A stretch of DNA of 64,000 bases from Cenococcum geophilum (taxonomy: Eukaryota). The number at the start of each line of letters is the position of its first letter. Position 1 is the stretch's first letter. This document shows positions 18,165-63,839 of this stretch, piece by piece. The notes below the pieces were generated by a model that worked only from the letters and a program-made list of their open reading frames with translations, was not told where the DNA came from and ran no database searches. The stretch spans positions 9,176,001 to 9,240,000 of the forward strand of contig CP158635.1 in the NCBI GenBank assembly GCA_050273025.1, in the 5' to 3' direction. The position numbers and the translations under genes were made by a program.

Positions 18165-18240
18165 CTATAATTAAATACTATTATTAGCGGCTGCGAAACG
18201 CGGGTATAAGGTAATAGTAAAGCTATTGCTAATAAAGGAT

Positions 18241-23450: not shown

Positions 23451-23559
23451 GCGGGAAAATAAAAAACTTTTAATTATAACTAAGATTACGCCCTACTAGC
23501 GGGGCGACAATAGAACGACGGCGGAGTGATAGCAGTACGCCGACAGAAATATAGATACT

Positions 23560-31200: not shown

Positions 31201-34200
31201 GGGTATGCCGTAGAGACTTAGCAATAAGCTTCGCGGATTAGTTCAGTCCATAGATTATTAACGTTAGGGACTATAAGCCGCTCCTAGTATAGGAGTAATC
31301 CTTCCTCCGTCTTAAAATCGGGGTCTCCCTTTATAGCTTATTCGCGGAGAGCCCTTAAGGCATTAGCCGTACGGTTTATAGTTAGGAGGCGGTTAATTAG
31401 CCCTATTAGCTTATCTAAAGACTCCTCCATTGGTGCTAGCTTATTTTACTATAAGTTTAGCTCCTTAAGGATCCGTAGGTTAAGCTGTTCTAGATAAAGG
31501 AGGGCGCGCGTCTAATATTAGGTCTTTAACTTATCCTAGGGCCCTATATCTTATTCTCTTTAGGTTAGAGTATTAGCCTTAAAGTTTTACTTACTAGAAC
31601 GATATATAATCGTAAAGAAGAATTAGGAGAGTATTTTAGCCTACTAGGCTTATTATCTAGTAAGCTGCTTTATAGTTATAAAGTACTCTAGGGCTTTATA
31701 ATCTATATATATCTTAATCTAGGAGTTTATACCTTTAAGCTTTGCGCGCTATTAGGAGAGTAATTAAATAATAGCTAATATTTCTTTATTGTATACTTTA
31801 TAGTTATACTTAGCTAGGTCTATTATTTTTAAAAAGAAAGCCATAGAGTACCATTTACTGTCTAGATATAACTGTAATAGGATTCCCGCTATAACCCTAT
31901 TAGAGGCGTCCGTTTCTAGCATTAATTTAAGGTCTAGGTTATAGTAATAAAGGATTAGGGAAGAGATAAGCCGATCCTTTATCTCTTTAAAGGCTTCTAT
32001 ATACCTATTATTAAAGATAAAGGGCGTGTCCTTCCTGGTTAGTTGTATAAGAGGTTTTACCGCAATTCCGTAGTTATAGATAAACTAGTAATAGAAGTTA
32101 TAAAAACTAAGGAAGGATTAGATTCCCTTTACTATATAAGGGGGCTTCTAGTTATAGATTGCCTCTACCTTTTTAGGGTTAACCTTAATTCCTTCTATAG
32201 TTATAATAAACCCAAGGTATTTTATATGTTTTACCTTAAACTCGCATTTTTTAATATTAACTTATAAGCCTACGTTCCGTAGTCTCTCCAGAACCTTCTT
32301 AATATAAACTTAATACTTAAGTTCGTTGTCTAAGTATATAAGAATATCATCTAGGTATACCGTGTAGAATTTGTTAAGGTAATTAAAAAGAACGTTATTT
32401 ATATACCTTTGGTACGTAGCTGGTCCGTTTATTAGTCTAAAAGAAAGAACTTTATATTTATAGGAACCATAACGGGTACGGAACGTTATTAAATCTTTAG
32501 ATGCAGGGTTTATCCTAATTTAGTAGAAAGCTTGGCGGATATTAAGTTTAGTAAAGATCTTTACCTAGCTTAGACGTGTAAGGGTCTCGTTAATTAAAGG
32601 AATAAGATACCAGTCCTTTTAAGTAATAGCGTTTAGCTTTTAATAGTTAATATAAAAATAAAGGCCTTTATTAGGCTTTTTTATAAATAAGATAGGGGAA
32701 GTAAAAGGGGCTTAACTTGGCTTGATAAACCCTTTATTTAGGTAATTAATTAAGTACTACTTTATTGCTTTTAGCTTATCCGTTAATTAATAGTAGAGGG
32801 GGCTATAGCCTAGCGAGTTATTGGCTTCTAATTAAATCTTATAATTATACGTCTAGTAGGGGGGTAACTTGTCTAAGGCCGCCTTTAAGAATGCATCCTT
32901 ATAGTTTATATAAATGGTAGGAAGGAGGCGTTTAACTAGTTCCTCGTTGGTTTCCTTAGCTGGCCTTTCCTCTCTATTATTAATAATTCGGTTAATTTTA
33001 TATATAGGCTTATTATAAAGATCTTATTGTCCTTTTAGTATATATTAAAGTAAAACGCTATAGCACTAATTACAGCGATGTTTATAGTGGGGGGGTTGCC
33101 TAATAATAGGAGCGTATATAACTTTAGGGACTTCCGGGGTACTAGCGTTATTATTACTTCTTTTAGCTCCTATTGTATCTTTTAAAGGTTATCCCTCATA
33201 TCCTATTAATACGTTCTTTTCCATACCGGTTAAATCCGTACAATTTAGACGTTATCTATATTACTATCTATCCCGCTTCTATACATAAAGTTTTTTTTAA
33301 ACGTAGCGCTTTAGGAGAGTATCTTTATCGGTATAGAGTTCTTTCTAGCTTTACGGCGGGCGTCTTCTTAGGTAAAGGCTAGGTTACAGGCCCTAACATC
33401 CTACTAGTATATAGGGTTAGCCCTTACGGCTAGTGTCTTATGGTTAGTTCGGATCTCCCTAACAAAGGAGGGCAACTTTGGTCTATCCTCCGGCTAGACA
33501 AACCGTCTTTATTACACGTTTAACTAAATATTAAAATAGGACATCTATTTTCGTCTAAGGATTATATTATAAAACCCTAGGTTTAGGATGCAAAAGGGAA
33601 TACTATATTGGCGTCGTCCGTTAAGAGCGATATGCAACTTTAAGACGTGGGTAATAGGCCGACTAGCTTGGCCGTTATAGCCTTTTACCTAAATAGGCTT
33701 CTCTAGTCGGATAGCTTCTGCATTTAGAAACTTGGTAACATTATTCACATAGGCAGTATTTATAAAGGCGAAGCTATTTACTCTAGTGTTAATAAGGGCT
33801 ATTATATTAACTCTATATCCATTTTAAGATACTATATATAGAACTATAAAATACTTTCCACCTATTAACTAACTAAGATTAATCTCTTTAAGATTAATAG
33901 GGTACCCTAGGGGGGAGTCTTTTCCTAGGGTTCTTCTTTTCCTAACTTATCGGACGTTTCTCCTTTCTCTATCTCCTTAATATCGCCTATATCCTTTAGC
34001 TCCAAGCAGGATAAGGTAAAGTAACCCTACTTATCGCAGTTATAGCATATAGCCGAGGCAGGGTTAATTAGAGTATTGCGGTAAATACTAATCAATAGCG
34101 TGGTATGTAACTGGTTAGGTAAGGCTTACTAGTGCGTAGTTATAACCGCCTTTGGTATAGGAGTAGTTATAACCTATCTTCCGGCTCTAGCTCCTATAGG

Positions 34201-37200
34201 TGTAGTTAGCGAGTTCTAATTATTATGGAGTTGCTTCTACTAATTAGGGCGGGTGTTAATCCGCTTTAGTTTTAAGTCTAATAATAGGTAACGAGCTGTA
34301 AGTTTTTCGTGGGTTAGTAGGTTATCTAAGGTTATAGCGATCTTTTCTTATAGCCGGATTGTTAGCTTATTATATAGGTCTAATTAGTAGTTCTTAAGGG
34401 GAACCTAGCCTTTTCCTATAAGGTATAGGAATTAAATCTAGAATTTGGCAAAGGGTTGGTTTAGTTTTATTATTAGGCGATTATAGTTATAACGGGCATC
34501 CCGTACTTTGTTTGGGTTAACGTAAATAGCCGCTAGGTACTATATTATCTTATTAACAGATATAAATTAGATAGGGGAGTTGTCCTTAAACTTAGCTTAA
34601 AGGTACCGTTAGGCGTCCCTAGTAGTTTAACCAAAGACATAAAGCATTTTGGCTTCTTTAGAAAGGAAGTAGTTATAGTTAACACGGAGCTTTCCTTATA
34701 CTTAAATCCTCTAATTCTTAAAGGTAGGGTCTATTTTATTAGATAGTAGTAAGGGGTCGGGGAGCTTAACGGACTTTAATTGCTTTATTATTATATCTAT
34801 ACTCCCTAGTATATCGTATTTAGTAGAGTAAATAGGTCGGCTAGGGCTTTAAAAAGGGGAAGCTAGGCTATTTTATAGGGCCGCGAGGCTTTCTAGGATC
34901 TCTTATAGGGTTTCTTATATATTTCTCGCTTTAAGACAATCGGCTTCCTAGCTAGCTGCAAGGGCGCGAATCTGCTCGCGTATGTTTACGATATTATCAT
35001 TGTCTTTAATTTCTAATCCCAATTAGATCTTAGGTTCCTCTTAGGTAGAGGCAGCTCTCTTAAATAAGCTTACTTTAGGTGCTATTATTAGCTTCCTAAG
35101 GTTTGTCGGTATTATACGCTTTGGTTTTAATTTTAGGGGTATAGGTCTAGTCCTATTTGGCTTATAAGGTGGGATATTATCTAGGCCTTCCCAGGCAATA
35201 TAGAGTTGTTTTAGTGTCTAAGTATAGCACATTAATGCGTTATTATAGACGAAGTTTCTTTAGGGTGGGATATTATTAAGGCCTTCCTAGGCAAGGTAGG
35301 GAGAGCTTAGTATAATATTATAGCTTAAACAAATGCCTCTAAACCGAAGCTTAAACGAATGCTGTATTACAAAGATACTAAGCTAAGGAGAAGGAAAAAA
35401 GGGGTTGCTAGGACCGATGTAAACAAATATATAGGGTAAGCCGCTAAGGCGCTAGCTTTAGGCGAGCTAATCGTAGGTTAGCAGAATATGGCAGAATTTG
35501 GCAGGTAACGTGCGATAGCGCCGTTATAAATTCGTAATGCTGCTAAGAATGCTACTGCTCCCCTACGGGTCGCCTATATAATATACTTGTTCTAGTTTAG
35601 TTTAGAATCTACCTAGACTCCTAGGACCTTAAGGGTAGCTTCTAGTTTTACTTTACAGCCCTAGATATTTACTGTTAAGGCTAGGTTACTACTTGCCCTT
35701 TTTTTCCTTATAAAGTGGATAAGCTAGTATTTATCTGGTGCAAATTTAGCGCCATGTTATTTTGCCTATACAATACACCTATTATACGCCTAGTTTAGCC
35801 TAGCGCAGTTTTCTACTGCTGTGTTTCCCTATATAATTAGGTTTGTATTGTCTATAAATCCTAGGGCTATTATATTCTGGCTATTATTAAATATCTCTAG
35901 TAGTTTAGATATAAAGAAGAGGAATAGGATTAGTAATAGGGGTGATCCCTATAGGATGCCTATAGGTGTTAGGATTAGTTTGCTTTTATAGCCCTTAATT
36001 ACAATCTTTATAGTACGCCCTATTAAAAAGGCTTAAATAAACTTAATTATCTAATCTAGAAGTCCTTTCTTTCTTAGGATCTATAGAAGTCTCTTATATA
36101 ATACGTTATTAAAGGCTCCGCTTAGGTCTAGGATTAGTATAGATATAGTACATCCTAGGTGGGTTTACCATGCCGCTTAAACGCTAGAGGTAATTAGGGA
36201 GAGAGCTAAGAGGGTTAATTGTTTCTTTCTTGCGCCTATTTATGTCCACGGTAGCAGCTTCTGTGCTTTTGCCGCTTCTTATATACATTTTATAACTATC
36301 TTTTCTAGGAGTTTTCCTAAGGTATTTTCTAGGGCAATTGGGCAGTAGCTTCCTAGAAGGGAGTAGTCTTTTTTCTTTACCTTTTATAGGATAACCATAG
36401 TTATTACTTTACAGTATTTGGGTAGTTTACCTCTCTAGAGGTAGGTAGTTATAGCCTTAGTAAGTAGTATTGCTATCGCTTCTGCCGCGGCTTTAATTAC
36501 CTCGTTTGGGATCTTATCTAGCCTTAGCGCTTTACTAGTGGGGAGATTTTATATAGCGTCCTTTATTTCCTTTACTAATATTATATAGCTTATTTTAATA
36601 GGTGGGGGGTAGGATTAGATGCTAATATCCTATAGGTCTACTTGGCCCGCGCCTAGGAAGAACCTCTCTGCTAGTATTTTAATTTTTTCCTTATTGTTAT
36701 TTATATACTAGTCTTATTCTGTCTAATAGAGTGCGGGTAAGTAGGGGTCCTTTAGCGTTTCTTTGGCGGCTTATTTACTCCACTTTAATATGCGCCAGAG
36801 TCCCTTATTATATAACTTAGTAGGGTTTAAGGTAATTTTTTCTAGGAATTAGCGCCAGTTATTTCTACCCTCTCTCCGTATTGTCTTCTTAAGCCTGTTT
36901 TTTAGGGCCTTATAGCTCTAGTGGTAGTAGGCTTTACCTATTACGCTATACTGTTGTCTCGGCCTTCTTACGCCCGTAAGTAGCTGGGCCGCCTTTAGCA
37001 ACTATTTACGGCGGGCGTGTTTACTAGGCTGGGCCTTTAGGCAGTATTCTTCTAGGCAGTTACTTATAGTCTACTAGATGTCCTCTAGCGATGCCTAGGG
37101 TATAGCTACTAGCCTATTAGAAACTTCCTGGGTGTATTTTTCCTGGATAAGTTTTTTAGTAGCGTATCTCTGGCGAGTTCGTTACGCTAGTGCGGTAACG

Positions 37201-37830: not shown

Positions 37831-40049
37831 GTTCGACATACCTGCTTATCCAGGCCTCTACCTCAGTCCTTAAGTAGCTTTCCCTTACTAAGCCTTAGGG
37901 CTTAGGGCTTTCCACAAGCAGTTAGCTGTTACCACCAATAATACGGGGATTTTCACCAGTTCTCTTGGGTATCTTATAATAGGATTAACCTAAGTACTAG
38001 TCTGCCCCCTAGCAGTCTATATAAGAGTCTCCTCCTAGAGTTGGTACGCTTTTGCACGGCTTAGGAGCCTTCTATAGCCTCTAGTTTTACGCCTTTTATC
38101 ATCGTTTCCGCCGGCACGGGCATAAGCTGCCATTTATAGGGGTCGCAACTCCCGTCTTACGCGCCTACTGACGTAATCCTATAAGGGCGTCGTAACTGCA
38201 TCCTGCAATGTGGAAGCCTTAGGTACCTTCTACGGTTAAGGCCAGCCAAGCCTCTCCCGCCTAAGTAACTCCTGTTTGCTCCTTAAGCGTACCTTACTAG
38301 CGTACTGCCCTAGTGAGCAGCCGTACTGCCCTGGCGAGCAGCCGTACTGCCCTAGCGAGCAGTCCTATCTATTAGTACACCGATACGCGTATCCGTTCTC
38401 TTGAGCCATGTAGTAGTCTCTTTAGCCAGGATGTAATCCTGCCTGCCTACTAGGTGCACTAGGGGTTAGAGCCCAGCTAAGGGGTAAGGTCCCTAGAGCT
38501 AGCAGTAGCTACTACGTACTACGCCCTGTAGGAGGCTAGTAGTAGTATAGGGGCGCAACACCCTATACTACTGCTAGTTCCCGTTTCGCGTTGCCTGTAA
38601 GAGTCTCCTTATAACAGGCCGACCGTGTCTTGTAGGAGGGGTTGTAGATGCTCGGTCCCGCGCCAGGCGACCTACTCTGCCCTCTCCTACTAACTAAGCT
38701 TGTGTCCCCCCTCCTTATAAGCTGGCCTGTGTCTCTAACTTATCGAGTCCTTGTACGACTGGCCTGTGTTTCCTTAGAGCCTTCCCCATATGTATGCGCA
38801 GGTTGCGTGCACCACGCCTATTAAGACCCTCCTGTGAGTCACCTGGTCGTCGAGCGCCATGGGGCCGTCGAAGCTGGCCTATGTTTCCGCTGCCTAGAGC
38901 TTTGCCCGTGTTTCCACCTCGTTAAGCCGTCTGGTCGCCGTCGCGTCGCTATCGCGTCGCTGTCGCGTCTGTCGTCCAGGTCGCGCGCACTACGCCTATT
39001 AAGACCCTCTTCTAAGTCACCTGGGTGTTGTATACCAGATAGGCCCTCGTAGAGGGGCCTTAACGAGTTTTTTAGGCAGGGCCCTAACAAGTTCTTCGCG
39101 GTGGCCTTAGGGCCTTAATAAGTTTTGTACAATTCTGCGACGCGTTAACCTTAACAAGTTCTTATAAAAAGAGGTTCCCTACGCCCTTGCCGTGTCCCTA
39201 TGGTTTCAGAGCTAGTGTAAGCCCAAGGGTGTCCTGTTATACGACTAGGACGCGTCTATATCGACTGGCTAGGTAATAAGGCCAGTTTCGGGCCTGGCTA
39301 CGAGCCAGGTAGTCGTATATTGGGTGGTTTTCGTATCCCAGTTTCCCTTAATGGCCCCCCTAGATAGTAGAGCAGGAGCCTCAGGCCGGGGCAGTAGGAC
39401 TCCTGGTGTTGTTGAGGGCGATGCTTTACTTAACCTAAATTATAATAAAAATATATTTATATCCCAGTTTCTAAATTTATTATTTTTATTTTTAGAATAT
39501 ATTCTATAAATAAAATCTAGATCTTGGTTAATGGATTTAGAATATAGTTTTTTAAATAACTTAACTTTATATATATATCTGCCAGCTAAGCCGTTTTTAC
39601 TAATTTCTTTATAAAGCTCTTTTACTCCCTTACTTACTTATAAGGCTCCCTTACTCTATTATAAAGCCTCCTTATTTCTATATAGTTGTTTAGGAAAAAT
39701 ATATATCTTTATCTTTATAAGAAGCCCCCTAAACTTTCTTAGACTACGACGCCTATACCCTAGACATAGAAGATACTACCTTATATAATTAACTAACTGG
39801 GTATTTAACTAAGGGGACGAAAATCGGTATACCGATTATTAATTACCTCTAGCGTATTAAAGTGTTCCTTAGGAAAGCCTAGCTAAGTTTAACTTTAACT
39901 AATCTTAAGTCGATATAGACGAAGAAGATTTTGTTAAATTAGAGCGGCTGTATAATTTAGCTAAGGTACCTATTAATTAAGGTATTTAGTAAGCTAAAAT
40001 TTAAGTAACGTAGTTAAGGTGTACTATAAAATTAACTTAATAGTAGCTA

Positions 40050-43508: not shown

Positions 43509-45521
43509 ACGTCTTAGCCACCTAGACGAGACAGCTACCTACCCGAGACAGTGCACGGACCTCCTACAAAAATCAAAATCAATTTAATACCAAAATCGAC
43601 CCCAAAATTAACCCCAAAGTCAACCTAAATCTACCCTATTATATAAATACACTATAATCCATTGGTAGTTCCTTCTAAACTTCTTTGTAAAGGTAATAAA
43701 CCCCCTATAATGCAGCCTTTCTTTCCTTTACCCTCTTCTCTTCCTGTTCCTTTTAAAGCTTTTTGTTGTTCTTCTTCTGTGCCTCTGCTACTAATAAAAC
43801 TTATACCTTCCTATAGGCAGCTCTTGTCTTACTAATACGCTCCTTCTTCTGTCTTTTAAGAAGCTCCTAATTTATTCGCTTAAGGATTATATTATTAGCT
43901 ACTGTACTTAATATAAACTGCCGAATATTATATATAACTTAAAAACGTAGGGGTGATGCACCTTATAAGAGCTGCCTAAATATTTTAGTAAGTCTCTCCT
44001 CTATAGAAGGAGACACGGGTATATTAAATTTATGGCTATTCTTGTCTGTAAAGCTTATATAGGAAGGAGTTATTAACTAAATCTTTTTTAAAATAACTAA
44101 AGGGTTAAACGGTAAAAGGCCAGTTGCCCGCCATGCACTTACTATATTAGTTAATAATATAGCTTCGTCTTGTATAGCTTAGTAATACTTAAGGAACGTA
44201 GGCTTAGTAATATTAATAGCTCTATAAAAGGCGAAGTTGTAAAGGCGTTTTTAATAGGCTTTTAATAAGGAGCTAAATATGCTAACATCTAGGGGTTAAA
44301 GTAGGTGTGTTAAATGAGGTAGTAGACAGAGAGGGATAATCTTATAAGCCTTGCAATACTTAATAAATTGCATTAATACGTGGCTCTTATATCCGTTAAG
44401 AATTAATAAGCAATAGGTTCCTTAAAGGCGTGGCTCTGTATACTGGTTAAAGTGTTTTAACTAATTAACTACAATGTCCGAATTTGTCTACCCTAAATCG
44501 CTTACTTAAATTACTGTCTCGCGATTAAGTCCAGGTAATATCTAAGATCGTTGCATTTGCTTTCCTTAAAAGATAAGGTAGGGAGGTAATCGATATTGAC
44601 CTCCTAATTGACCTCCTAATTGACCTCCTGATTAACTTCCTAATTAACCTCCTAATTGACTTCCTAATTGACCTCTTAATCGACTTCCTAATTGACCTCC
44701 TAAGTAACCTCTTAATCGACTTCCTAATTGACCTCCTAATTAACTTCCTAATTAACCTCCTAATTGACTTCCTAATTGGCCTCCTAATATGCACTTAATA
44801 ATAAACACCTAATTGCGATTGCCCGGCTCTATAATAAAGGCTTAAGCCTTTAATTAAGGAATAAGCTCCTTAACCTTATTGCCTAACCTTATTGCAATTC
44901 CTTTCTTATCCATATTGTATTAATTGCCTAGGGGAATTACGTACTTAGTAATAGTAGCTTTATAGAGATTAAACCACTCTTTAATAATCTCTGGATCCTT
45001 AGTATCCTTTTGCTTTTAATTAAGGCCTTAGGTAAATTAAGCTTTAAGCTCTAGGTATCGGGTAAAGAAGTTTTTATACTAGTGTTAGCTAAGCTCTAGA
45101 GGACGCTTCTTTGCAGTAAAGATACTTTTAGCTATAGATTTAAGGTATTAAATTTAAGGTAGCTAACCCCAGGCTCCCATTATATTGATCCATTTAACTA
45201 GGGAGTCCTCCTTAATAACTGAGAGCTTTTAAAGCTTTTGGTGATACTCCTTGCTTAATTAGCGGCCGTTACGATGATAGTAAATAGAAGAAGGTAATAG
45301 ATCGTATATTCGGGTAAGCAAACGGCTAGATTGATTAGGATTGGCTTCTAATAATTAAAGAACTATTTGCATTCAATCTTCTTGGCCAAGTAATAGTAAT
45401 TAGGGGGTAGTAGAGGACATAGTGGTGATATAGTAGAGGAGTATTTTGATGTTTTGATTTTCGTAGGAGGTCCGTGCACTGTCTTAAGTGGGAGGCTATC
45501 TCGTCTAGGTGGCTAAGACGT
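43509..45521 (-). mobile_element. Fot1/Pot2-like (pogo, Tc1-mariner superfamily) DNA transposon
   Basis: ~70-bp TIRs starting ACGTCTTAGCCACCTAGACGAG, TA TSD on both sides. Transposase on minus strand from ATG 45420 with YNMDKKG (~44900-44920), LILNGYKSH (~44380-44405), PHLTHLL*PLDV (~44285-44320). Confidence 0.95.
44596..44787. repeat. 12-bp minisatellite (TTGACCTCCTAA) x16 inside the transposase gene
   Basis: 192 bp = 16 units, directly visible. Confidence 0.95.
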
Positions 45522-49468: not shown

Positions 49469-52400
49469 TATAACGGAACCTTATAGCAGGAACTACGATG
49501 GGCTTGTTATTAGGCTAGGTGTATAGATAATATAAATTAAAGTTAACAACGTAATAATAACTAGTGGAGTAGTTGCCTAATAGATTAACTCTAATTATAT
49601 TCTAAGAATTACTACAAGGAAGGAACTATCTAGGTAGGGACTAAAGGTCATTAAATATACAACCGTACTCCTATAAAAGCCTTCTTATATATAAGGTATA
49701 TAAGTTCCTCTTATTCCTTCTGTTTAATATATAGTATATTATATAACCTTAGTTACTATTCCTTATTACATAGTTCTATTGGCTCTATTCTAGACTATAC
49801 CTAAATTAACTAACTAGCTTCTTCTAACTTCTCTTCTAGTAGTTATAATATTGTACTTAAAGCGTCCGTAATACTATTTCCCTCCTTTTTATCTTTATCC
49901 TTAAAGATTCCTAGTATCTCTAGGTTATTTATTAGAGGTATAATATCCGTCTAATTAATTTAGTTAATATTGTTACTTATTATACCTAAAGCTTCTTCTT
50001 CTTTACATACCCAACATCGTGCTCACACTATTGCTGCAATATTATTACTTAGTAAAATTATACCGTCTTCGTGTTCTCGTTGTTTAAAAGAGGGGTTAGT
50101 TTACGTTATATTAGTAAGTCTATCCTTATAATAGCCGTCCTCTTATTTAAAGTGTACTAAAGCGAATATTTACTTATGCTATAACGTTTATTCTACTTCT
50201 AATGCTAAATATACGCGTCCTATTACTCTTAATAACCGTCTAGTTCCCTAATTAATTTATCTTAAGGTCTTATGTTTAATTTACTGCTACGCGGCTAGAT
50301 AGTAAACTATCTGTTGCTTTAGCTAAGCTAAAACGTTCTTATAATATAGAGTAGAAGGCCCTTAAAGCCCATATTACGGCGTTTACTTAGTTACTCTGTC
50401 TTAAGAAGGTTATAAAAAGGTTTATTTTAAGGAGTAGAAGCTTATAGAATAGGGTCTATAGGAACTTAGTGATAAAAGAACAGATTCTCTTCTATTTAAG
50501 AAGGAAATAGATATAAGTAGTTTAGCAACTGCTTTTTTTAAGTCCCCCTTAGGTAGCTTATTTTTTAGTAATCCTTTTTTATTAATACTGCCTAACCTAA
50601 TCTCTTCTAATACTTTTATACCTTTCCTATAGCGTTTTTTAGGTTCTCTAGTGGTTTCTAGATAATCTTATTATAGCCTATCTACTTTACCTTATACTAT
50701 ATTTTATTATTAATATCCTTATAATTAATAATCTTTAAAAGTTACTATTTATCTTCTTTTTGTCCTCTATATGTGTCTACTTTATAAACTAGTGGCTTAA
50801 TATTCCTATATACTGGTTTTAGTATTGCGATATACTATATAGGGTAGATTTTTATTTTAGCTAGTAGGTTTAACTTAAACGTAACTAGTAAAATCCTCTA
50901 AATAATTTTAAAAGGTCCTAGTCTAACGTAGTTTAACTTCTTACTTAGTTATTAACTCTTAAAATTTTTGTGTAGTAGCTATACTTTATCTCCCTCCTTA
51001 AGATCCAGTCCCTTAGATCTCTTAGTATTATAGTATCTTTTTATTCTTTTTTATACTTTCTTTACTAATTCTATAAAGTCTATATAAAGATTTATTAACG
51101 TCTTTATTCTTTCTTTAGCTATACTACTTATTTTCTTTACTTATTATAGTAATAATAATATTCTTAGCTTATACCCGTAATTTGCCTTAAATAGTAATAT
51201 ACCTATTCCTTTTTATAGTGTTATATTATATATAAACTATATAACTGGTAATAGTAATACCTAATTATTCTACGCGTAATTAATATAGTATCTTAGATAC
51301 TGTTCTAGTGTCTAATTTAGTTTCTCTATTTAACCGTCTGTCTGCGAATAATATACGGTAGAAGTTACTGCTTTAACTCCTTATTCCGCTAAGAATACCT
51401 CTTAAAATACTATTACAAATCTTAGATCTCTATCTAATATAATTTTACTTAGTACTCTATGTCTTATAAATACTTCTTTAATATAGATTTTAGTGATATC
51501 TTTTACTAATATTTCTTCTGTATATACTATAAAGTATCCCTACTTTATAAGCTTATCTACTATTACTAAAATTATATTATAATCTTATCCGGTAATAGGG
51601 TCTCTTAACTTTAGTAACTTAATAATAAAGTCCTATAATATAACCTCCTATAGTCTTTCTGGTATCTTAATAGGTTATAGCCCTCTATATAGCTTATACC
51701 TTATTAGTTTATTCCTTTAGCAATCTAGATATTCCTTTATAACTTTTTATACTAAACCCTAGATTTTATTAATAATATACTCCTTTTAAAGTCTTAACAC
51801 TAAGCCTATGGCTCTATTATGTCCTTAAGTTATTTCTTTATAGAAATCTTTTACAAATTGCTCTGCTATGCTTCTTAGGATATACCTTACTTCTTAATTT
51901 TTGTATATATTTATCTATAGATCTTCTAGCTATGCCTTTAGAATTCTTTATGCCTAAAAGCTCTCTAGTAACTTATAAACTTTCTCTAGTTCCTCTTAAG
52001 TTGCTATAATTTTTAGATAATTATATCTAATTAATCCATCTATATTTTTTAATAGTAAAGCCCCTAATAGCTTCTCGTTATTTTATAGTTTGGCTTTTTA
52101 ACTTAAAGCGTCTGCTCTTATATTATTTTTACCCTTAGTATACTAAATCTTAAAATAGTGTTCTATAAGCATTCCTACCTATTTAACCTATCTTTAGTTA
52201 AGTTTCTATATTATTAGGAATCTTATTAGGTTTTTATAATCTATTTTAACTATAAATAGTTTTTTTATACCTTATAAGAATGCTCTCTATTTTTTTAGTA
52301 CTATAACTATACCTAATAATTCCTTATTATAGATGTTATAGTTTAACTCTAATAGTATTATCTTCTAACTATAATATACTACTAGGTGCTATCTATTTTA

Positions 52401-55400
52401 ATATTTTTTATATAAAGTATACCCCTAGTATATAGTCTAATGCATCCGTTTTTATAACTATCTCTAGTTCTAGTTAATAGATCTTAAGAACTGGCTCCTA
52501 GGTAAACAACTTTTTAACTTTTTTAAATAATTCCTATTGTTCCTCTCCCTATACCTATAGTTCTTTTTTCTTTATTAATTACGTAAATAGTTTAATATCC
52601 TTTAACTACTACGTTATAACCCTTCTATAGTAATTATAAAACCCTAGAAATAATCTTAACTGCGTAATATTCTCTAGTTCTTACCAATTTACTATAGCCT
52701 TAATTTTCTTTAAATCTATATTAAGTTGGCCTAGTTTAATAATAAATCTAATAAAATTGGTCTTCCTAGTAAAGAACTCGTATTTCTTAATTGCTACTAG
52801 CATCTATTCCTCTTATAGTCTCTTTAAAACCCATTTAATATATTCTCTATATTCTTCCTTACTTATTAAGTAAATAATAATATTGTTAAGATATACTATA
52901 ATAAATTTATCTAAGTATTCTTCTAATATATTATTAATACGCTTTTAGAACGTTACTAGTGCGTTTATAAGCCCGAATTGCATAACTAATAGTTTATATA
53001 GTCCTTCCTTTAACCTAAAGGCTGCCTTTTATTTATCGCCTTTCTTAATCTTAATTTAATGATACGCCTATCTTAGATCTATCTTTATAAAGATTTACAT
53101 ATTACTTATCCTATTTTAGATCTTACTAATTAAGGGTAAAGGATATCTATCCTTTCTAGTAATGCTGTTTAACTATCTATAGTTAATATACAGCCTTAGT
53201 TTACTATTTTTCTTTAGTATAAATAGTACTAGATAACCTACTAATAACTGCAATAGTCTAATATATCCCTTTTATAGATTTTCCTAGATAAACTCTTTTA
53301 ATGCTCTACCTTCTTCTTTAGTAAGCTTATAGATTAGAAAGAACCTTAGACTTATTTTTAGTTCTAATTCTATCTTATAGTTCTATACTATATACTCTAA
53401 TAGCTTTTTACTTTCTAGTCATTATAGTTTCTTGCTATACTTGTGGTATCTTTTTAGTATATAACTTAAGCCTTACTTAGTCTCTTTATATATTACTCCA
53501 ACTTAGTACTATACTAACTTAGCTTATTATTATATCTTACGGCGTTAAGTATCTTTAATATTAACTTAACCTAACCCAATTAATTTTTAGATTATATTTC
53601 TGTAACTAAGGCATTCCTAGTACTGCCTTATTATTCCCTAATAGTAATATATTAAAAGACATCTTAATCTATCTCCTTTTAATAGTTAACTAAATAGGTC
53701 CTATTTTAAGGTTAATAATACCTCCTTTATAGGCTATCGGATCTCCTAAAATTATTACTAATAGGTAAAGATGCTCCTTTTTCCTATATAGTAACCCTAT
53801 TCTTTTAACTGCTACTAGTAATATATAGTTCCTTATTACTTTACTATCTATTAATGCTTTAAACTATTAATCTTGCCACTTAACTTATAAATTTAGGTAT
53901 TATTCTTAAATTCCTTTAAGGGTTTAAGGCTTTACTACTAGTTCTCTCTAGTTTTATAGGCCTCTACTTTTCCTAACTATTAGCTGCTTAATCCTATTTA
54001 TATTTAGTCTACTTTTAGCTAATACTTAGTTTACTTTTTATCCTTAATATACTATAGATATATATTCTTTAAGTATTCCCACCACTATTATCTATCTAGG
54101 TATTTTTCCATAAGAAATCTTCCTGGTTAAAGTATTAAGTCCCCTTAGCTTTATACTTCTACTAGGTGCTAACTATATATATACTTAGTATTTCTATATT
54201 TTACCTTATCCGTTATCTAATATATTCTTTTTAGATACTTTTAGTTTTTATCTTTAAGTACTCTATATATATTATATATATTATTTACATACGTAATCTA
54301 TGCTAATGTATAATATACTTAGTGTTTTAGGTTAACTCTTAGCTCGTTTTTATCCTTAAGTTTAAACCTTTCTTATATTAATCTAAGCGTTACGACTTCG
54401 TTTATAGGTACTAAGATTTATCTTTTACTTCTTTAGTCCTCTAATTGCTCCTCTAAATCTTTTAATATTATAATTAAGGCTCCCTTAATATAAGTTATAG
54501 CCTTTTCTGTAATTAGGTGGTCTTAGATAACTTTTTCGTCCAGCTATATATAGAAATCTTCCTACTTATTATTATATCGTTGTCGATACTACTTTTAGTA
54601 TAGCTGTTTAAGTATATACGGCGTATCCGTAAGGAAGTATCTTCTTATTACTATATCGTAATAGCCTTTTATATGTCGTTCTTTAAACCTAGTTAGAATC
54701 CCTAGATCCTCTTCTTATTCCAGTTTAGTAAGCCACTTAGCTTTTAGTGTGCCTATCTTAGGCCTATTAGTAATTCTTCGTACTAATACTCTGTCTCGTA
54801 TACGTCTTAATATGCTAGATCTCTTATCTAGTTTCTAATCTTGCTATAAGGTGATTTTTGCTCTAAACTCCTATAGTTTCTTTCCTTTCGCGTCTTACGA
54901 GTAGATCCTTAAAGTCTTTTTACTTCTTAATCTTTATATTAGTCTTCCGATCTTTAGGCTAAACACTATATTCCCCTAGTAAGTCTTTTAGGTCTATATA
55001 CCTATCTCCTAGTCTTATTACTATTTATACCGCAGATTCTCTAATCTTATTAATAGTCCTTATTTATATCTTAAAGTCTTAGTTCTATAGGATTCTTAAT
55101 CCTAAGCTCGCTTCTAACTTAAGTTTAGCTCCTACCTTAGTCTAACTAGGCTTAGGTGTTCTTATCTCATCTTAAGAGTCTTAAATCTTACTTATCTTGT
55201 CTTAAGAATCTTATATCTATAGGAAACTCTATTCTAAGCTTATTTGTATATCTTTAAACTAAGCTACTACTCTGCTCTATTGGTTTCTGTCCGTTATAGG
55301 TCCTTAAGCTTACCTTATCTTATCTTAAGAATCTTAAGCCTTTAGCCTTTTGCCTTTATCGAGTGCCAAAGTGGTTCACTGTCCTACTTCTTTTACGTCT

Positions 55401-57320
55401 TATAAAGCGATAGGCATTATATCTAGTGGGGTCTTAATCCCTACTAATGTTCCCTATTCTGTAGTGGAATTATCCTTTACCTCTTATATAATATCTCTAA
55501 GGTCTATATACTTCTAGTAAGCTACCTTCGTTACCTTATCGTTATAAAATATTTCGCCTACGTTAAATTTATTGTCCTTAATGTCCGATCTACGAACTAG
55601 TTTATTAGTTCCTCTATACGCTATAGGGTTTAGCTCCTATAGCTAATAGCTTACGCTATACTTAGCGTTTTTATAAATTTAGTATACGTTATTATAATAA
55701 AACGTAAAACTTCTAATTAAACACTCTTTTATTCCTTATAGTACACTATTATTTCTCTATATATATATATCTCCTCCTATTAGTCCTATTCTCTTTATTA
55801 TATAGTAACTCTAACTATCTTTACAATCCCTTATAAAATAACCCTATTTTCCGCAATTTATATAAGCTCCGTTTTTAAACCATTAACTTTACTATAGAGT
55901 TCGCCTAAATATCTTCTACTACTAAGATCCTTAGTTTAGCCTTTACTCCTAGGTCCTATAATTACTAAATCCTTAACCTTTAGGTTTCTATAGTTTCTTA
56001 CTCTATCTCTTATAGTTTTCTTTAGTACTACTTAAGTCTATTAGCTCTGCGTTATACTATAGTTTCTAACTTAGCTTTAGTTATTACGTACTTTACGCCT
56101 TATATAACTATAGAACTCTATTCTAACCTTTCTTAGCCTGCTCCCTTTAGTAGATCTAATTGTTAATCTTAATCGCTTAATCTATTAGGTCCCTTAGGGT
56201 ATCCATATCTTCTATTAGAATAATTACGTCCTAGACTTTAGCCTTAAGTCCTTATTTATACTGTGCTATAAGCGCCCTATTATTCTACTTAACTTATATA
56301 GTTAGCGTTTAAAACTATATTATATACTTAATTGCTAAGGTTTATTACGTAATATTCTAAAGTTTTCTTTTCGCCGTAGTTGTTCCTTCTAGGTCTCTAA
56401 ATATTTATATAAGTCGCTCTACAAATCCTTCCTAGCTTAAGAATATAAATTATACCTTCTAATTGGTGGTTGTTATTTCATTTATCTATATCTCTATAAG
56501 GTAAAGCTTAAATTATTTAAGTGCTCTTCCTAATAGAAATAGTCCCGCATAGGCTATTTAATTTATAGATATTAGTAGCTTTACCCCTTCTTATATAACT
56601 TTAAAGTGCATTTACATAAGAAATCCTTTAAGCTTTAATCTTTCTCCTAAGTATCTCTTAATCGATAGTAGCTTAATCTTCGCCGCTTCTATCCTATTAA
56701 CCCTTTCTTCTAGTACTATATTATTAGTTATTAACCGGTTAATTACCTCTTATAATTATCTGACCGTTATAGGTTGCTATAAGTTAGTATCTACTATACT
56801 AGTGTCGTTTGCTAACCTTAACGTAGTTGCCGCCGTCGTTAGTGTTATAGTGGCTGCTTTTAGTGGCATATTATTCGACTTTCTATATTTAATACTATAA
56901 CTAGGTAGTAATTATATAACGGAACCTTGTAGCAGGAACTACGATAGGCTCGTTATTAGGCTAGGTATATAGGTAATATAAATTAAAGTTAATAACGTAA
57001 TAATAACTAGTGGAGTAGTTGCCTAATAGATTAACTCTAATTATATTCTAAGAATTACTACAAGGAAGGAACTATTTAGGTAGGGATTAAGGGTCCTTAA
57101 ATACACAACCGTACTCCTATAAAATCTTTCTTATATATAATATACGTATGCTCTATCTACTCTGTTATAGATCTTATAGATTATATTATATAACCTTGGT
57201 TATTATTCCTCGTTATATAGTTTTATTAGCTCTATCTTAGACCGTGCTTGTATTAACCAACTAGCTTCTTCTAACTCTTCCCTAAGTAGTCGTAATATTG
57301 TACTTAAAGCGTCCGTAACA
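49469..57320 (-). mobile_element. Ty3/Gypsy chromovirus LTR retrotransposon #3 (no TSD; LTRs divergent)
   Basis: ~405-bp LTRs (49469-49873, 56915-57320), PPT AAAAGGAGGGAAATAG. gag from ATG 56869 with CCHC knuckle at ~55825-55865; protease ALIDS at ~53850; RT VYLNNIIIY at ~52880; integrase; chromodomain at ~50590-50760. Confidence 0.95.
49982..50663 (+). pseudogene. Antisense accessory gene inside Gypsy #3: Zn2Cys6-like cluster plus coiled coil
   Basis: [M]PKASSSLHTQHRAHTIAAILLLSKIIPSSCSRCLKEGLV[Y]VILVSLSL**PSS[Y]LKCTKANIYLC, then a probable intron, then RLDSKLSVALAKLKRS...KLIE*GL*EL. Confidence 0.7.
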
Positions 57321-57718: not shown

Positions 57719-60700
57719 TGTTTATATTAATTTAATAATATAAGGCGAGTTATATCCAGGGGCACGAAATACATATGGTATTGTATGCTCTTTTAGATGG
57801 TAGTAACTGTTAATTCTATTAAGGTAGACTACGTGGTCTATATACTAACGCACCTCCCCCTAATTAGTCAGTGCTTTATAAGTGCACTAGACGCGTAAGT
57901 AGGTGGTTAGTGCACTGAACGCGTAAACGCGTACTCGGCGTACCAAATGCGTAAGTACGTGGTTAGTACGATAGGTGCTGTAATTATACACTAGCGGTAC
58001 TTGGAAGATGAAACCACTTATATACAGCCTCTGTAATTGCTTTAATAGACCCGTAAAACACGTAAGAAAATATATAGGAAATCCCTCCCGAGGTGCCTTC
58101 TGGGCTGCCTTCTAGACGGTGCTCTAAGCTGGCCGTAAGTCCTGCTTACGGCCCGTAAATAAACCGTACGGCCTTCCGACAGGCCGTAAATGAACCGTAA
58201 GTGCTCCGTTAGTCTCGCTCTACCCATTCTATAACCTTTAGGTTAAGCTTGTTTATATCAATTAGGGTTTTAAGGGCTTAATATGGCTTTACCTTAGTTA
58301 TAGCGTCTACTAGGTTATCTCCGCTGCTGATCCATTTGACCTCCGTAATCTTACGTCGTTCGTAGGCCTAACGTAAGTATATTAGGTCGACTATAAGCCT
58401 CTTCTCTTATATTATACCTAGTTTAACTAGGCAGTTATAGAGGGACTTTAAATCGGTGTATAAAACCAGGGGTAGCTGCTTCAATTATAGGATCTTCTAG
58501 ATTATTAATTTCATTGCGGCTGCTATATTAAATCTATAGGCTAGTGTATATAGTTTAGAGGCTAGTATACTGCGGGTTACTTATTTGCACTTAATTAAAG
58601 ACTAGTGCAGAATGTTTGCGTCCTAATTATAGTCCATAAGTACGATTATAAAGCCGATTTGTAATAATAGGTCTCTATTATTAGTAAAGGAGGCGTCCGT
58701 AAATACCATTACGCCAATAGAATTTAGGTCTAGCGGTATAAAAGTAAGTCCTCTTATCGCATTATCAACCTGCTATTAAATGCGCTTATTAAGCTGCTTA
58801 AAATTTTCTTCTTATAGATTTACTGCCTAGGCTGCAAAGGATAAGTTATAGGCAGATTTGGGTTAGCAAACTGTGGCAATATAGGCGCCTCTTACACGCT
58901 ATATAGCGTATTAGTCCTTTATATTTTACGGTCTTATAGGTCTCTTTATGGGAACTAGTAAGGTCCGTAGGCTTTACTATAATAAGCTTTAGGTTTTAAG
59001 CTTGGCGTTCCTAGATTAGCTAAATTAAGTTGCCCTTTTATATAATTAAGCCTCCGTTAAACTTAATTGGGGTCTACTTAGTTAACTGCTCTTACGGCTT
59101 TGCCAGGAACTTAGCTTCTTATAGTTTAGTCTCTTTAGCGTCCGCAAATGTCTAGTCCGCTAAGAAGAGGGTATTATCTGTTTAAAGTCTAACAATACTA
59201 AGGCCGTTTAATAGGGTGTATAGGAGGTAGGGGTTATAGGTCGATTATTCTATTTTAAGTTTATAGATATAATGCTAGTAATATGTCTTAAACCAGTAGT
59301 TTCTAGCTTCCGGCACTCCGTAAAGTAGTTTTATAACCTATAAAATTGTTCCTAGTTACAGATTAAGCTTAAGCGGTAGTCGTATAAAGATGTCCCTACT
59401 TAGGTAGGTATTAGACTGTATATAGGCTTATAAAATGTCCCATAAGTAAAGGGCTACGGGTTTTATTTATTGTAGTATAAGCGTAAGCGTAAGTATAATC
59501 CGTTAACTGACCTATTAAATTATAGGCGATTACGTAAGGACTAAGTCTTTCCCCTAGTCGTTATAAGCTTATATAACAAGCCTTAACTTTTTAAAGGCTT
59601 TATTAGTATTAGGGTGCTTAATTTTATTAATAAAGCGCAAGCTAAATATACGGACGCCTTACGGAACGTCTCTCTCTATTATAACTATAAAGACGCCCTT
59701 TTTAAGTAGTCCGTTAATCTCTTTGCGTTATAAGTCCGTAAAAGGGGTTTTTTTATACTAAAACTAATATATCTATAGGCGGAGGTTGCCTTATGGATAT
59801 ATCTACGGAGGTTAAGTAATTCTTTATTATGGGGTTTTTAGTTACGGGGTGCTTCTAGGGGTGTCCTTAACTACGCTTTATAGTAGGTTTAGCGGATTTA
59901 GTAAGTTTACGGGGGACTTCTAAAGTAGGTAAGGGTGCTTCTAGTCTATCTAGTTTAGCGGGTACTTTTAGTTTGTCTAGTTTAATGGGTACTTCTAGTT
60001 TGTCTAGTCTGGCGTTATAGGTATATTGGGCCAAAAGTAGGGTTTTACGGACGTGCTTCTAAAGTTAGTTAGTCCGCTAGGAAGTTATACGTAATATATC
60101 TCATCTTCTATAGCTAGTAAACAGTAAGGTCTAGTCTAATTGCCGCTCTCGCGCTATATAAGGACTTTAAAATTAAGCGGGAGGTTATATACTAAGGTTA
60201 TATTAGGTCCGTTACGGTAGTATAAAGCGTTATTAATAGTTTATTTAGCCCGTAATTTAATTATTTCGGCTATTACCTTCTGTATTATAGCTGCTTAATC
60301 TGTAACGGACGGGGCAGGAGGGTCCAGTTTGCTTATCTTTAGGTAGGCTCCGTAAACTAAGAGGGTAGGTATTAGTCCGTCAGGGCTAGCGGTATTATTA
60401 ACGGCTTTTACGGCTATCTATAAAGCTAGTTCCTTTTAGATGTTCTTATACTCGTCTATAATAATCTAGTAAGCTCTCTATAGAGCTAAATAAGCTTACT
60501 TAATAAGCCTAATAGACTAGTACGCCTTAACTAGAACAGCTTTTATTAAAATAGCTATAGCTATAGTGTACTGTTAGAATTCCTTACTGATAAAGTTCCT
60601 ACTAGCGTTGTGGGTAATATACTTAGGAGGTCTAAGATATATATTAATCTAGCAGATCTATAAAATGTTCTAAGTATATTTTATAGATATATTTTACAAC

Positions 60701-63700
60701 TAACGGGCGGCTTAATAGTGGGTTACCTTATTAATTATATATAATACTAGGCTGCCGTTAATATATATAATGTCTACGTATACTAAGTGGTTAAAATTAA
60801 GGTCTTTATAAAGAGTAAACTTAAATCGGCCTAGGGAACGTCCGTATTTCTAGTAAAAGGAGCAGTATTTAGTTAGGTAGTCAATTGCCTTCTTATTAAC
60901 GTTATTATATTTAGAACGTTTAAGGACTTTATATAGCTTTTCGGCTAATAGGTAGCTAAAACGGCGGTATAGGTGGTAGATTTCCGTACTGGTAAGGTAG
61001 TATGGGTTATAGTCGAAAGATTCCTAAATATAGGTCCGTAAAGTCTCTCCCTATATAAGGAACAGGTGTCTAAATCGTTGTATAATTGGTAGGGTGATAT
61101 TTTTACTTTTTAGGGCAGTTATAGGGCCAATTAGAGTATCTATAACATTGTTATAGTAAACCTATAGTCTATCTATATCTGTAAGGTAGAGTAGAAAAAG
61201 GGTGTCCGCTTTTACTATATGGAAGTTAACTAGGCTAATTAAAGTCTTAACTTTAACTAATCTAATTAATGCGGTTAAGCTAATACTAAATTAGATATTT
61301 ACGGCCCTAGTTTATATAGTATCGATGTCCGTATTATCCTTTATAGTAGTCTTATATATAAGGTATTATCCGTAACCTATAGTAAACTTCTTAAAAGCAC
61401 CTATATCAATTATAACGCCGTAGAATTCTTTAGGGGTATAGCGCTCTATAGTAATATATATAAATAGGTCCTATTCGCGGTCTATAATGTCCATAATAAG
61501 TCTAATAGGTATACTTATAGGCCAGTTTTCGGGTATAATTAAGTGTATAAAGGAGCGGTCGGCTAATATGGTTGTAATATTAAAGGCTTAGCTATCTATA
61601 AAAGGTCTAAAAGTAGTTAAGAATATCTCTAAGGTCTCCTATTCCTAAGTATCTAAGTTAAAATTAATTATAAGGGCTTCCATTGACTTGTTAAGAGACT
61701 CTTCTACTTCCTTTCCTTTATAGTCTAAGATAAACTGGTTAATTTGTCTGTTAAATCTCTTTTTAAACTTGTCGCGTTCTTCTTAGATATACTTTATAGA
61801 CTAATATCCTTTCTTACTATATATAAAGCACCTCTGATTGGTTTGTCTTTGGGGGTATACTTTTATATAGGAGTTGCTATAGGGGTTATAGGTAGGACCT
61901 AGTCGATGTGGGTTCTGCTAGCGGTAGCGGCGGTCCGTAAAGTAGGCATCTAAGTTAGTTTGCGGATTTTGTAGGTCTGTAATAAAGGCTTAAGTATTAC
62001 CTAGCGGGTTTAAGGCTTCGTATGTTATAATAGAGGACCGTAAATTGTTAATAAGGCCAGCTATGGTGTCTGCGGGCTTATAATAGGCGTATTTGCAGGG
62101 TTCTATTTCCTAGTAAGCCGTAATAAGTTTATTATACAGAAAGTCGTCCGTTTAAAGCTTGATATTAAAACTGTGCTATAAGTGGCGGAGGTCTTTAATA
62201 AGGATTTGCAGGTACTCTATGGTCGATTTTTTAGTATTTTTGTCCATTACAGTCCGTAACTTAGTCGCATTCTATTAGGTACGGATATTACGCTTATATT
62301 CCGGTCCTTTAAAGTAGTTATATGTGGCTTCGTATAGCTTATTAAAGGGAACACCAAGGGGGTTATTCTTAAGGTTGGTATAGTAGTGGTTAAGTACTAG
62401 GCCGCGCAGTATAGTAGAGTAGGCTTAACTAAACTCCTATTTAGGAATATCGGCCTTCTAATAGAGGTCCGTAAAGATAGTTAGTTTAAAGTTAAAGTTA
62501 TCGTTTTCACCGCTATACTTAGATTTATCGGTATAGAGCTTAGCTAGGTTAGCTAGTTCCTTACTATAGGTCTTTACTTAAGTAGTTTATAGATCTGTAA
62601 CTTAAGTGACAGAAGGGTTTTAGTTTATATTTTAATTTATAGAGGTATTACGGTCCGTAATTTGGGTTACGGGATTATTATAGTCCGTAACTTAAGTACT
62701 AGGTATACTTTAGCCCGTAAAATTAATTCCAAAATCGCTTAGATTTATAGGACAAATTTAGTTAAGTAGGTTAGGTATAAGGCTAGTAATACTATTAAGT
62801 TTAGGAGAAGTAAAGAGTTTATTAGTGGCTTTAACCTAGTTTAGGATTTCCTCTTTAGTCTATTCCATTTAGTTCTCCTCCTATATTGTGTTGTATAAGG
62901 ACTATATAATAGTAACTCGTTTATCCTTTTTAACCCATACACCTTAGTAATATAAAAGGGTTTATAGGTTATGGATAGCAGTAGGGTTACAAGCCTTAAA
63001 AATAGCTTCTGTAAAGTCCGTAAAGTCTTCCTTATATTACTCCTATAGGCTATTATTTAGGAGCTTATAGTATCCGTATTTAAGGATTTTAAAATTAATG
63101 TAGTCGTTAACGCCGTCTGTAGACGTAAGGTCGACTCCCTAACTCTACTTTTTTTAACCTTTACTAATTTGCTTAGTTATATCTGCCATATTATGTAGCG
63201 TAGTATGTCTATATAAGCTGTAACGGGTTAAGAGGAGCTTGTAGCGGGTGGAAGTGGATTATAGCGGGTGGAGGAGGTCTTATAATGGTCCGTAAAATTA
63301 ATTAACGGGTCCGTAATAGTTTGAGAGATCTTGTAGTAGTCCGTAAAGGCGATTAATAGGTCTGTAATTATTTACAGGAGGGTAGGGGTTTCCGTAAAGG
63401 TCTATATTTATATCTATTACACTTTTAGTAAACCGTATTAAGACTTAAATAAGTATATAGAGTTAGTGATAGGTCCGTAATCCCTAACTTCCAACCTTAT
63501 AGTAGGTCGTACTAGGATTAAACGGGTAGTCGCTGTCGTGTATCGCTTGGGGGGGTGTTAAGTAATTGCTAATCTATGCGCGCTTACTAATCAGTATTTA
63601 TATTAATTTAATAATATAAGGCGAGTTATATCCAGGGGCACAAAATACGTATAGTATCGTATGCTCTTTTAGATGGTGGTAACTATCGATTCTATTAAGG

Positions 63701-63839
63701 TAGACTACGTAGTCTATATACTGACGCACCTCCCCCCTAATTAGTTAGTGCTTTATAAGTGCACCAGACGCGTAAGCGGGTGGTTAGTACACCGAACGCG
63801 TAAGCACGCAGTTAGTATGACAGGTGCTATAATTATACA
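57719..63839 (-). mobile_element. Ty1/Copia LTR retrotransposon (full length, RIP-inactivated)
   Basis: LTRs 57719-57990 and 63595-63839, TSD GATAC. gag-pol 63189 to 58209 in IN-RT-RH order: ITHNASRNFISKEF (~60580-60620), RL*TDNTLFL (GLQTDD, ~59165-59190), KCK*VTRSILASKLY and YTDLKSLY...NLVDAITK. Confidence 0.96.

Follow-up and report, generated by a model that had tools for sequence, protein, structure and literature searches.

Does a short reading frame that runs antisense to pol, between pol and the 3' long terminal repeat (LTR) of a heavily mutated Ty3/Gypsy retrotransposon, represent a gene of the element, and what kind of protein would it encode? The question is raised by a stretch of 64,000 nucleotides from Cenococcum geophilum (assembly GCA_050273025.1, contig CP158635.1, positions 9,176,001 to 9,240,000 of the forward strand), which we refer to as the window and number from its first letter. 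The frame lies in the third of three Gypsy elements of the window, Gypsy #3, which is 7.85 kb long, is bounded by 405-bp LTRs and bears the marks of repeat-induced point mutation (RIP). An original prediction had placed an accessory gene here, with a Zn2Cys6-like cysteine cluster and a helical region, and had suggested that such a gene recurs in unrelated fungal chromoviruses. To our knowledge, few LTR retrotransposons carry an extra gene, and for hardly any such gene is a function known.

Comparison of the locus with its sister copies indicates that 49982-50632 on the plus strand is very probably a RIP-inactivated copy of a real, selected antisense accessory gene of this chromovirus family. 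That the product is a dimeric regulator of the zinc-cluster type is a tentative reading, to which we give somewhat less than even chances.

Antisense gene model and sister copies

The gene model comprises two exons on the plus strand, located between pol and the 3' LTR and antisense to pol (49982-50632; Table 1). Its 3' end overlaps the tail that follows the pol chromodomain together with about the last 10 chromodomain codons, in agreement with the originally described frame on the strand opposite pol that reaches the chromodomain end. The position next to the polypurine tract of Gypsy #3 was likewise recovered (tract and 3' LTR in Table 1). The end of the frame had been set at 50663; the stop codon is a TAG at 50630-50632, which is kept in 73 of 74 sister copies.

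Relatives of the gene are numerous. Exon 1, with its stops read as X, matches 16 proteins at 53-74% identity, and a profile built from these 16, searched against 1.84 billion representatives, retrieved 222 proteins with E <= 1e-3; the lengths of the 150 profile matches listed range over 48-233 amino acids. None of the 10 protein clusters looked up carries a name, and searches against named proteins returned "hypothetical protein" at best. A search for longer protein relatives gave only open reading frames (ORFs) running in from the LTR, and a scan of viral contigs yielded no relative of the antisense gene. At the DNA level, a metagenome scan produced 624 pattern matches, 605 of which were confirmed as copies; the best 80 were kept and correspond to 78 loci. 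Many of these loci hold entire elements of about 8 kb, which share 78-85% identity with 49469-57320 and have the ORF at the corresponding position. Those copies that span 49860-50820, 74 in number, were aligned with the window, and all 74 carry the antisense gene at the same place. The proposal of an accessory gene of the Gypsy #3 family is therefore borne out by its presence throughout these copies, as well as by the codon periodicity and the synonymous excess described below.

A RIP-aware consensus built without the window is open over 205 codons, with no internal stop. Set against a RIP-aware consensus, the window copy differs at 213 of 650 compared positions, and 171 of the differences are C>T or G>A, a direction that the consensus rule itself favours. 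The start codon is ATA in the window, as in 53 of the 74 sister copies, and ATG in 20 of them. Eight in-frame stops further interrupt the reading frame of the window copy, which also lacks 21 nt after 50357 and is frameshifted by the loss of 1 nt after 50410. With its start codon changed from ATG to ATA and both splice sites mutated in addition, the window copy is dead and has no present-day function.

The cysteine cluster

In the consensus, the first exon encodes a cluster of six cysteines with spacings x2, x6, x13, x2 and x8, that is C-x2-C-x6-C-x13-C-x2-C-x8-C. At these six positions, all 74 sister copies carry only Cys or Tyr, the TGY-to-TAY change being of the RIP type, and all six are Cys in the related proteins P0171, P0021, P0093 and P0132. 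The cluster had first been read from the window as C-x2-C-x6-Y-x13-Y-x2-C-x7-C at 50072-50179. This pattern is present as read in the frame from 49982, but its register is off by one at the end, where the true spacing is x8 and the last codon begins at 50180. That sixth codon (50180-50182) is TAT in the window, Cys in 33 of the 74 copies and Tyr in 41. The codon before it, 50177-50179, is TGC (Cys) in the window; 71 of the 74 copies encode Ser or Phe there, 46 of them with TCC. The Cys at 50177 is thus a private Ser-to-Cys change, one codon ahead of the true sixth cysteine. Instead of four intact cysteines and two tyrosines, as initially counted, the window keeps three of the six ancestral cysteines (50072, 50081 and 50153) and has three RIP-type tyrosines (50102, 50144 and 50180). 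The RIP origin proposed for the first two of these tyrosines was correct, both positions being Cys in sister copies. A scan of the window for the motif in its Cys-or-Tyr form found no second site with at least three Cys.

Selection on the antisense frame

The selection tests used purine/pyrimidine differences only, since RIP does not make transversions. In exon 1, transversion diversity by codon position was 0.050, 0.016 and 0.124 (p = 1.1e-9), and in the part of exon 2 outside pol it was 0.10, 0.06 and 0.23 (p = 9e-7). Where exon 2 overlaps pol, variability is lower and periodicity is absent (p = 0.19). Among the controls, the LTR showed no periodicity (p = 0.3), and the reverse transcriptase (RT) and integrase regions were periodic (p <= 6e-7). 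In the upstream 120 nt, by the polypurine tract, transversion diversity is low, at 0.010-0.036 depending on phase. Between the two sides of the intron, the phase of the periodicity shifts by one base, as expected from splicing, so that a single minus-strand frame cannot explain both exons.

Furthermore, 37 of the 64 variable transversion sites of exon 1 are synonymous in the plus frame, against an expectation of 24% (p = 1.2e-8); the three minus-strand frames give 8-31%. Neutral evolution, which would have spoken against a gene, is contradicted by both the periodicity and the synonymous excess of exon 1. Judged from these substitution patterns, purifying selection acted on the protein of the antisense gene during the diversification of the family.

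Splicing of the two exons

The probable intron of the original prediction was recovered as a 55-nt interval between the exons. Its donor is GT in 6 of the 74 sister copies and AT in the other 68, all losses being of the RIP type, and the acceptor AG is kept in 69. Evidence for its removal comes from P0171, a protein of 152 amino acids from a 1246-nt contig that retains all six cysteines and shows few signs of RIP. Over 129 residues, P0171 shares 73% identity with the consensus product, and it matches the full-length hidden Markov model (HMM) of the family as one stretch across the exon junction (179 bits). The Trp at the junction is the codon obtained by joining the T that ends exon 1 to GG across the 55-nt GT..AG intron. 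P0055, from a 2113-nt contig, likewise lacks the intron. A further contig of 748 nt from run X3 (depth 25) joins 49910 to 50266 and uses the same acceptor, the RNA nature of X3 being a guess.

Splicing of the antisense gene is strongly suggested by these junctions but falls short of proof, since P0171 and P0055 may derive from cDNA contigs, from DNA without the intron or from spliced gene models. No RNA data set was listed as containing the stretch. In RNA run X1, 113 of about 9.3 million records aligned, all of them partly and 98 at less than 90% likeness; none held the intron joint, and the run is uninformative on expression. An antisense intron cannot be spliced out of the genomic RNA of the element, which accounts for its persistence within a retrotransposon.

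As a separate observation, the X3 contig skips both 49910-50266 and 50315-50499; it may represent alternative splicing of a transcript or a derivative that arose by deletion.

Predicted product

The predicted product of about 205 residues would begin with a basic N-terminus, followed by the six-Cys cluster and a short linker. Next would come a helix of some 75 residues in which hydrophobic positions are spaced in a heptad-like manner, and finally a tail that is rich in Ser and Pro and also contains acidic and hydrophobic residues. AlphaFold2 models of P0171 reached a mean predicted local distance difference test (pLDDT) score of 81 when the alignment held 48 sequences and of 79 when it held 17. 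They contain one long helix (residues 77-151), with block-mean pLDDT of at least 94 from residue 81, in keeping with the heptad-like helix that had been expected after the intron. The best heptad register has strongly hydrophobic residues at 11 of its 21 a/d positions. Short helices were also modelled after the first and fifth cysteines (residues 35-39, and from 56 or 59).

Cluster, linker and long helix follow one another in the same order in GAL4-type dimers, the Zn(II)2Cys6 factors typified by GAL4 and PPR1. The predicted protein resembles these factors (PF00172) in its six cysteines arranged as two C-x2-C-x6/8-C halves, then a linker and a long helix. It differs from them in scoring below the Pfam cut-off, in its x13 loop, in having no confident fold and in being encoded by a retrotransposon. 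Moreover, it has only about 205 amino acids and is without the large middle regulatory domain of the host factors. The layout resembles a small GAL4-type dimer, but membership in the GAL4 type is not established.

Two database results point in the direction of zinc clusters. A phmmer search of PDB with P0171 returned the Zn2Cys6 protein PPR1 (1pyi) as its first hit, which is not significant (E = 0.56). In the ESM Atlas, the first match (score 0.90, 200 of 256 shared features) is a 204-amino-acid cluster from Ascomycota that was automatically named "Zn(2)-C6 fungal-type domain-containing protein"; the length fits the 205 predicted codons, and the match is a lead only.

Evidence weighed against the proposed gene and its product

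Several results weigh against the reading of 49982-50632 as a selected gene for a zinc-cluster regulator. With respect to the zinc cluster, the Pfam Zn_clus model (PF00172) scored 13.6 bits on P0171 against a cut-off of 21 (E = 0.075), and the match covers only model positions 18-36 of 39, that is the second half. The central loop of x13 is one residue beyond the 5-12 of the GAL4-type pattern quoted in the original prediction, whereas the other spacings fit. The cysteine region reached a pLDDT of only 50-66 in the two AlphaFold2 runs, and the cleaner alignment did no better. The family profile found no match in PDB at E <= 10, and Foldseek found none in PDB either. With VIA-align wide, the matches were confined to generic long helices, tied at Z of about 7.4, in rows that cover the long helix only. 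No Zn_clus match was obtained in 20 other relatives scanned, and DUF3716 was not among the Pfam families at E <= 10 for P0171. The earlier assignment to a GAL4-type cluster thus retains the suggestion made by the spacing, and lacks a Pfam score above the cut-off.

With respect to the gene, no copy among the 74 is intact, with in-frame stops at a minimum of 3 and a median of 7, which speaks against a current function. Taken by itself, the motif does not reach significance: a Cys-or-Tyr hit with at least three Cys turned up in 34 of 100 block shuffles of the window, against one hit observed. The motif therefore counts as real on comparative evidence only. Where exon 2 lies outside pol, counting synonymous sites does not tell the strands apart, the plus frame (42%, p = 0.004) being about equal to the wobble-aligned minus frame (40%, p = 0.01).

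Among the alternatives, the one that survives best accepts the gene and disputes its product. The cysteine cluster would then be another small metal-binding or disulphide module, not of the GAL4 type, and the protein would act through contacts with protein or RNA (Gag, integrase, the chromodomain or the host silencing machinery) and not as a transcription factor. The low, half-length Zn_clus score, the family profile without a PDB match, the x13 loop and the uncertain AlphaFold2 model of the cluster all agree with this possibility. In addition, P0171 lacks, between its second and third cysteines, the second basic position of GAL4-type clusters. Yet the spacing otherwise fits two C-x2-C-x6/8-C halves, the order of cluster, linker and long helix is that of GAL4-type proteins, and the zinc-cluster protein PPR1 and an automatically named Zn(2)-C6 cluster came first, the former without significance, in PDB and the ESM Atlas. 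On this balance we consider a different module less likely than not, but the competitor to be taken seriously.

A second alternative would derive the periodicity from pol, read on the minus strand past its apparent stop. The pol stop is TAA in most rows and CAA in 2 of 75, so that it could have been made by RIP; the minus frame, when liberally freed of RIP changes, is open for some distance, and in exon 2 outside pol one minus frame equals the plus frame in the synonymous-site test. However, the wobble position of the pol frame falls on the least variable position in that part of exon 2, and two different minus frames would be needed on either side of the intron. In exon 1, the best minus frame reaches 31% synonymous sites against 58% for the plus frame, and the minus frames carry stops even in the liberal consensus. 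We regard read-through of pol as very improbable.

That motif and frame arose by chance in AT-rich, RIP-mutated DNA, with conservation due to recent copying or to cis-acting sequences near the polypurine tract, would suit the frequency of the motif in shuffled sequence, the stops and frameshift of the window copy and the absence of a Pfam match to the translations of the window's own exons, but it is hardly credible in the face of an antisense three-base periodicity that shifts phase across the intron, an excess of synonymous transversions that exon 1 shows in the plus frame only, six positions restricted to Cys or Tyr in every copy, a stop codon lost in a single copy, intron-less relatives with open frames and a consensus open over its full length.

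Proposed role of the antisense gene

The preferred reading remains that of a selected antisense gene whose product may be a zinc-cluster regulator. Blended into one judgement, gene and regulator together fall moderately on the favourable side of even. Under this proposal, the gene would be transcribed inward from the 3' LTR side, and its intron would survive retrotransposition through its antisense orientation. The protein would bind two zinc ions via the six cysteines and dimerise through the helix, and it could then serve in the nucleus as an element-encoded, DNA-binding regulator of transcription or silencing, of the element itself or nearby.

A comparable arrangement is found in human T-cell leukemia virus type 1 (HTLV-1), whose HBZ is an antisense-strand basic zipper (bZIP) protein, transcribed from the 3' LTR of the retrovirus and with a spliced transcript. 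Like HBZ, the fungal product would be a small regulator that putatively dimerises and binds DNA, and its gene lies antisense at the 3' end of a retroelement. Unlike it, the fungal protein has a cysteine cluster and no basic zipper; HBZ belongs to a vertebrate retrovirus, no descent is implied, and transcription from the LTR is only proposed for the fungal gene.

In its broadest form, the proposal is that a widespread ascomycete chromovirus lineage encodes an antisense, spliced, dimeric zinc-cluster transcription factor that is transcribed from the 3' LTR side and tunes transcription or counters silencing; we consider this full version doubtful. If true, fungal retrotransposons would gain an element-encoded regulator, and such elements would be "complex" retrotransposons in the manner of HBZ-bearing retroviruses. 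Many orphan proteins of about 200 amino acids in Ascomycota, labelled "Zn(2)-C6" or "hypothetical", would in that case be products of retrotransposons and not host regulators. Should the zinc-cluster hypothesis fail, the gene would be one more member of the brtn-type class described below. The dead copies alone suffice to show a selected, protein-coding fungal accessory gene with a defined predicted product.

Comparison with described antisense genes

The original prediction had left room for the gene being undescribed. An antisense extra gene at this position is already in print: brtn (Zhao et al. 2011, Virology 417:248) is an extra gene that Boty-like elements of Botrytis and Sclerotinia carry in antisense orientation between pol and the 3' LTR, as cited in passages of later papers (PMC8365987, PMC7264820, PMC4227169, PMC5987419). 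According to these passages, the layout of an antisense accessory gene is already known from Boty, which shares with Gypsy #3 a fungal chromovirus carrying an extra gene opposite gag-pol, between pol and the 3' LTR. The likeness is one of described position and orientation, and the citing passages are silent on Cys motifs, a coiled coil or an intron. Gypsy #3 (405-bp LTRs, 7.85 kb) is accordingly likened to Boty by gene position and not as a relative of it.

In plants, antisense additional ORFs between pol and the 3' LTR, termed aORF-3R, have been described in the Ty3/gypsy elements Grande, RIRE2, Retand and PvRetro13 (PMC7264820, PMC11963269). The fungal gene corresponds to this class in its orientation, opposite to gag-pol, in its place between pol and the 3' LTR and in its conservation in all 74 copies. 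As far as the passages describe them, the plant aORF-3R also share with it their presence in most family copies and a conservation like that of other element proteins (PMC7264820). They differ in belonging to plant elements, Retand being of a non-chromovirus lineage (PMC11963269), and the passages mention no zinc-cluster-like product. In other fungal Gypsy elements, an "additional ORF with unknown function" is marked in a figure legend (PMC2864245), and extra ORFs of Botrytis Gypsy elements are drawn in figure S1 of PMC8365987. No zinc-cluster-like antisense gene of a fungal retrotransposon was found in full-text searches of the literature; the original 2011 paper on brtn may say more.

Host element

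Most of the window has a GC content of about 0.3, and stop codons run throughout all frames, which is the pattern left by RIP. Mapping by direct repeats and tblastn located three Gypsy elements, at 18239-24843 (pol on the plus strand), 29339-35526 (pol on the minus strand) and 49469-57320 (pol on the minus strand); matched by order, these are Gypsy #1, #2 and #3 of the original prediction. The LTR pair of Gypsy #3 forms a direct repeat with 85.9% identity over 410 columns, and its LTR was also found in 120 sister sequences. In a less mutated sister copy (L072), Pfam domains follow in the order rve (18.7 bits), SH3_Tf2-1 (42.6 bits) and Chromo (22.9 bits). Chromo lies at the same place as the chromodomain remnant of the window, with E = 8.4e-5 and a score just below the cut-off of 25.1. 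Gypsy #3 is a Ty3/Gypsy chromovirus, given its paired LTRs and polypurine tract, the RT, integrase SH3 and chromodomain remnant of the window, and the domain order of L072. From the position of the pol stop codon (Table 1), the final ~230 nt of antisense exon 2 are shared with pol.

Table 1. Features of Gypsy #3 and of its predicted antisense gene (positions in the window)
Feature	Position	Strand	Description
Antisense gene, predicted exon 1	49982-50210	+	76 codons plus 1 base
Six-Cys cluster remnant	50072-50182	+	ancestral Cys codons at 50072, 50081, 50102, 50144, 50153, 50180; in the window C, C, Y, Y, C, Y
Antisense gene, predicted intron	50211-50265	+	55 nt; AT..AA in the window, GT..AG in the consensus
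Antisense gene, predicted exon 2	50266-50632	+	long helical heptad-like region and Ser/Pro-rich tail; TAG stop at 50630-50632
3' LTR	49469-49873	-	405 bp; TA..TA in the window, the RIP form of TG..CA; direct repeat with 56915-57320
Polypurine tract	49874-49900	- (purine-rich strand)	directly inside the 3' LTR; read from the sequence
pol stop codon	50401-50403	-	TAA in 73 of 75 rows, CAA in 2
Chromodomain remnant, pol C-terminus	50603-50750	-	read from the translation
Integrase C-terminal SH3 domain (Tf2-1 type)	50811-50993	-	Pfam SH3_Tf2-1, 25 bits in the window
pol reverse transcriptase region	52615-53394	-	tblastn of the window's three Gypsy elements against each other, 40-43% identity, lowest E 3e-28; transversion periodicity p = 3.8e-9
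5' LTR	56915-57320	-	direct repeat

In the RIP-aware consensus of the LTR (121 copies), columns ~255-300 hold three to four tandem units of a 9-nt GC-rich motif that contains CGCGG. The 3' LTR of the window lacks 20 nt at these units, which could be a factor-binding repeat in the unique 3' region (U3).

The other Gypsy elements of the window

The same gene layout had been claimed for Gypsy #1, and from this a recurrence across unrelated chromoviruses. Two profile HMMs of the family, run over the six frames of the window, match 49982-50629 only, with nothing in Gypsy #1 or #2, and the antisense side of Gypsy #1 gave no Pfam match. Among the 78 fetched loci, none matched the pol-to-3'LTR interval of Gypsy #1 in DNA at E <= 1e-10. 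Read by eye, the antisense frames of Gypsy #1 offer only a non-canonical Cys/Tyr pattern and a helical stretch, and those of Gypsy #2 offer nothing. With no HMM or Pfam match in Gypsy #1, the notion of recurrence in unrelated chromoviruses comes down to one family in the window. The presence of the same gene in Gypsy #1 is unsupported in the window, though it is not disproved.

A low-complexity stretch occupies 23514-23719 in the pol-to-3'LTR interval of Gypsy #1, Pro-rich in the plus frame and Glu/Lys-rich in the minus frame. Elsewhere, a metagenome locus (L037:593-3832, minus strand) carries a Gypsy pol whose RT is 52-55% identical at the protein level to the RT of 18239-24843. This likeness indicates that the organism in question harbours a relative of Gypsy #1. 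The pol-to-3'LTR interval of this relative extends beyond the fetched stretch, and the divergent L037 copy, being truncated, cannot show a second carrier lineage.

Other features of the window

Beyond the three mapped Gypsy elements, two further pairs of LTR-like direct repeats may each bound another LTR element. The first lies at 2468-3203 and 6578-7308, 4.1 kb apart and about 75% identical, and the second at 57721-57931 and 63597-63808, 5.9 kb apart. At 38001-39000, an island with a GC content of 0.547 stands amid AT-rich DNA and may be an unmutated gene or repeat fragment. Finally, a RIP-mutated remnant of a DDE_1 (pogo/Fot1-type) transposase is found at 44131-44607 (minus strand) and 44559-44822 (Pfam DDE_1, 50.4 bits against a cut-off of 22), where it overlaps a tandem array of at least 15 copies of a 12-nt unit.

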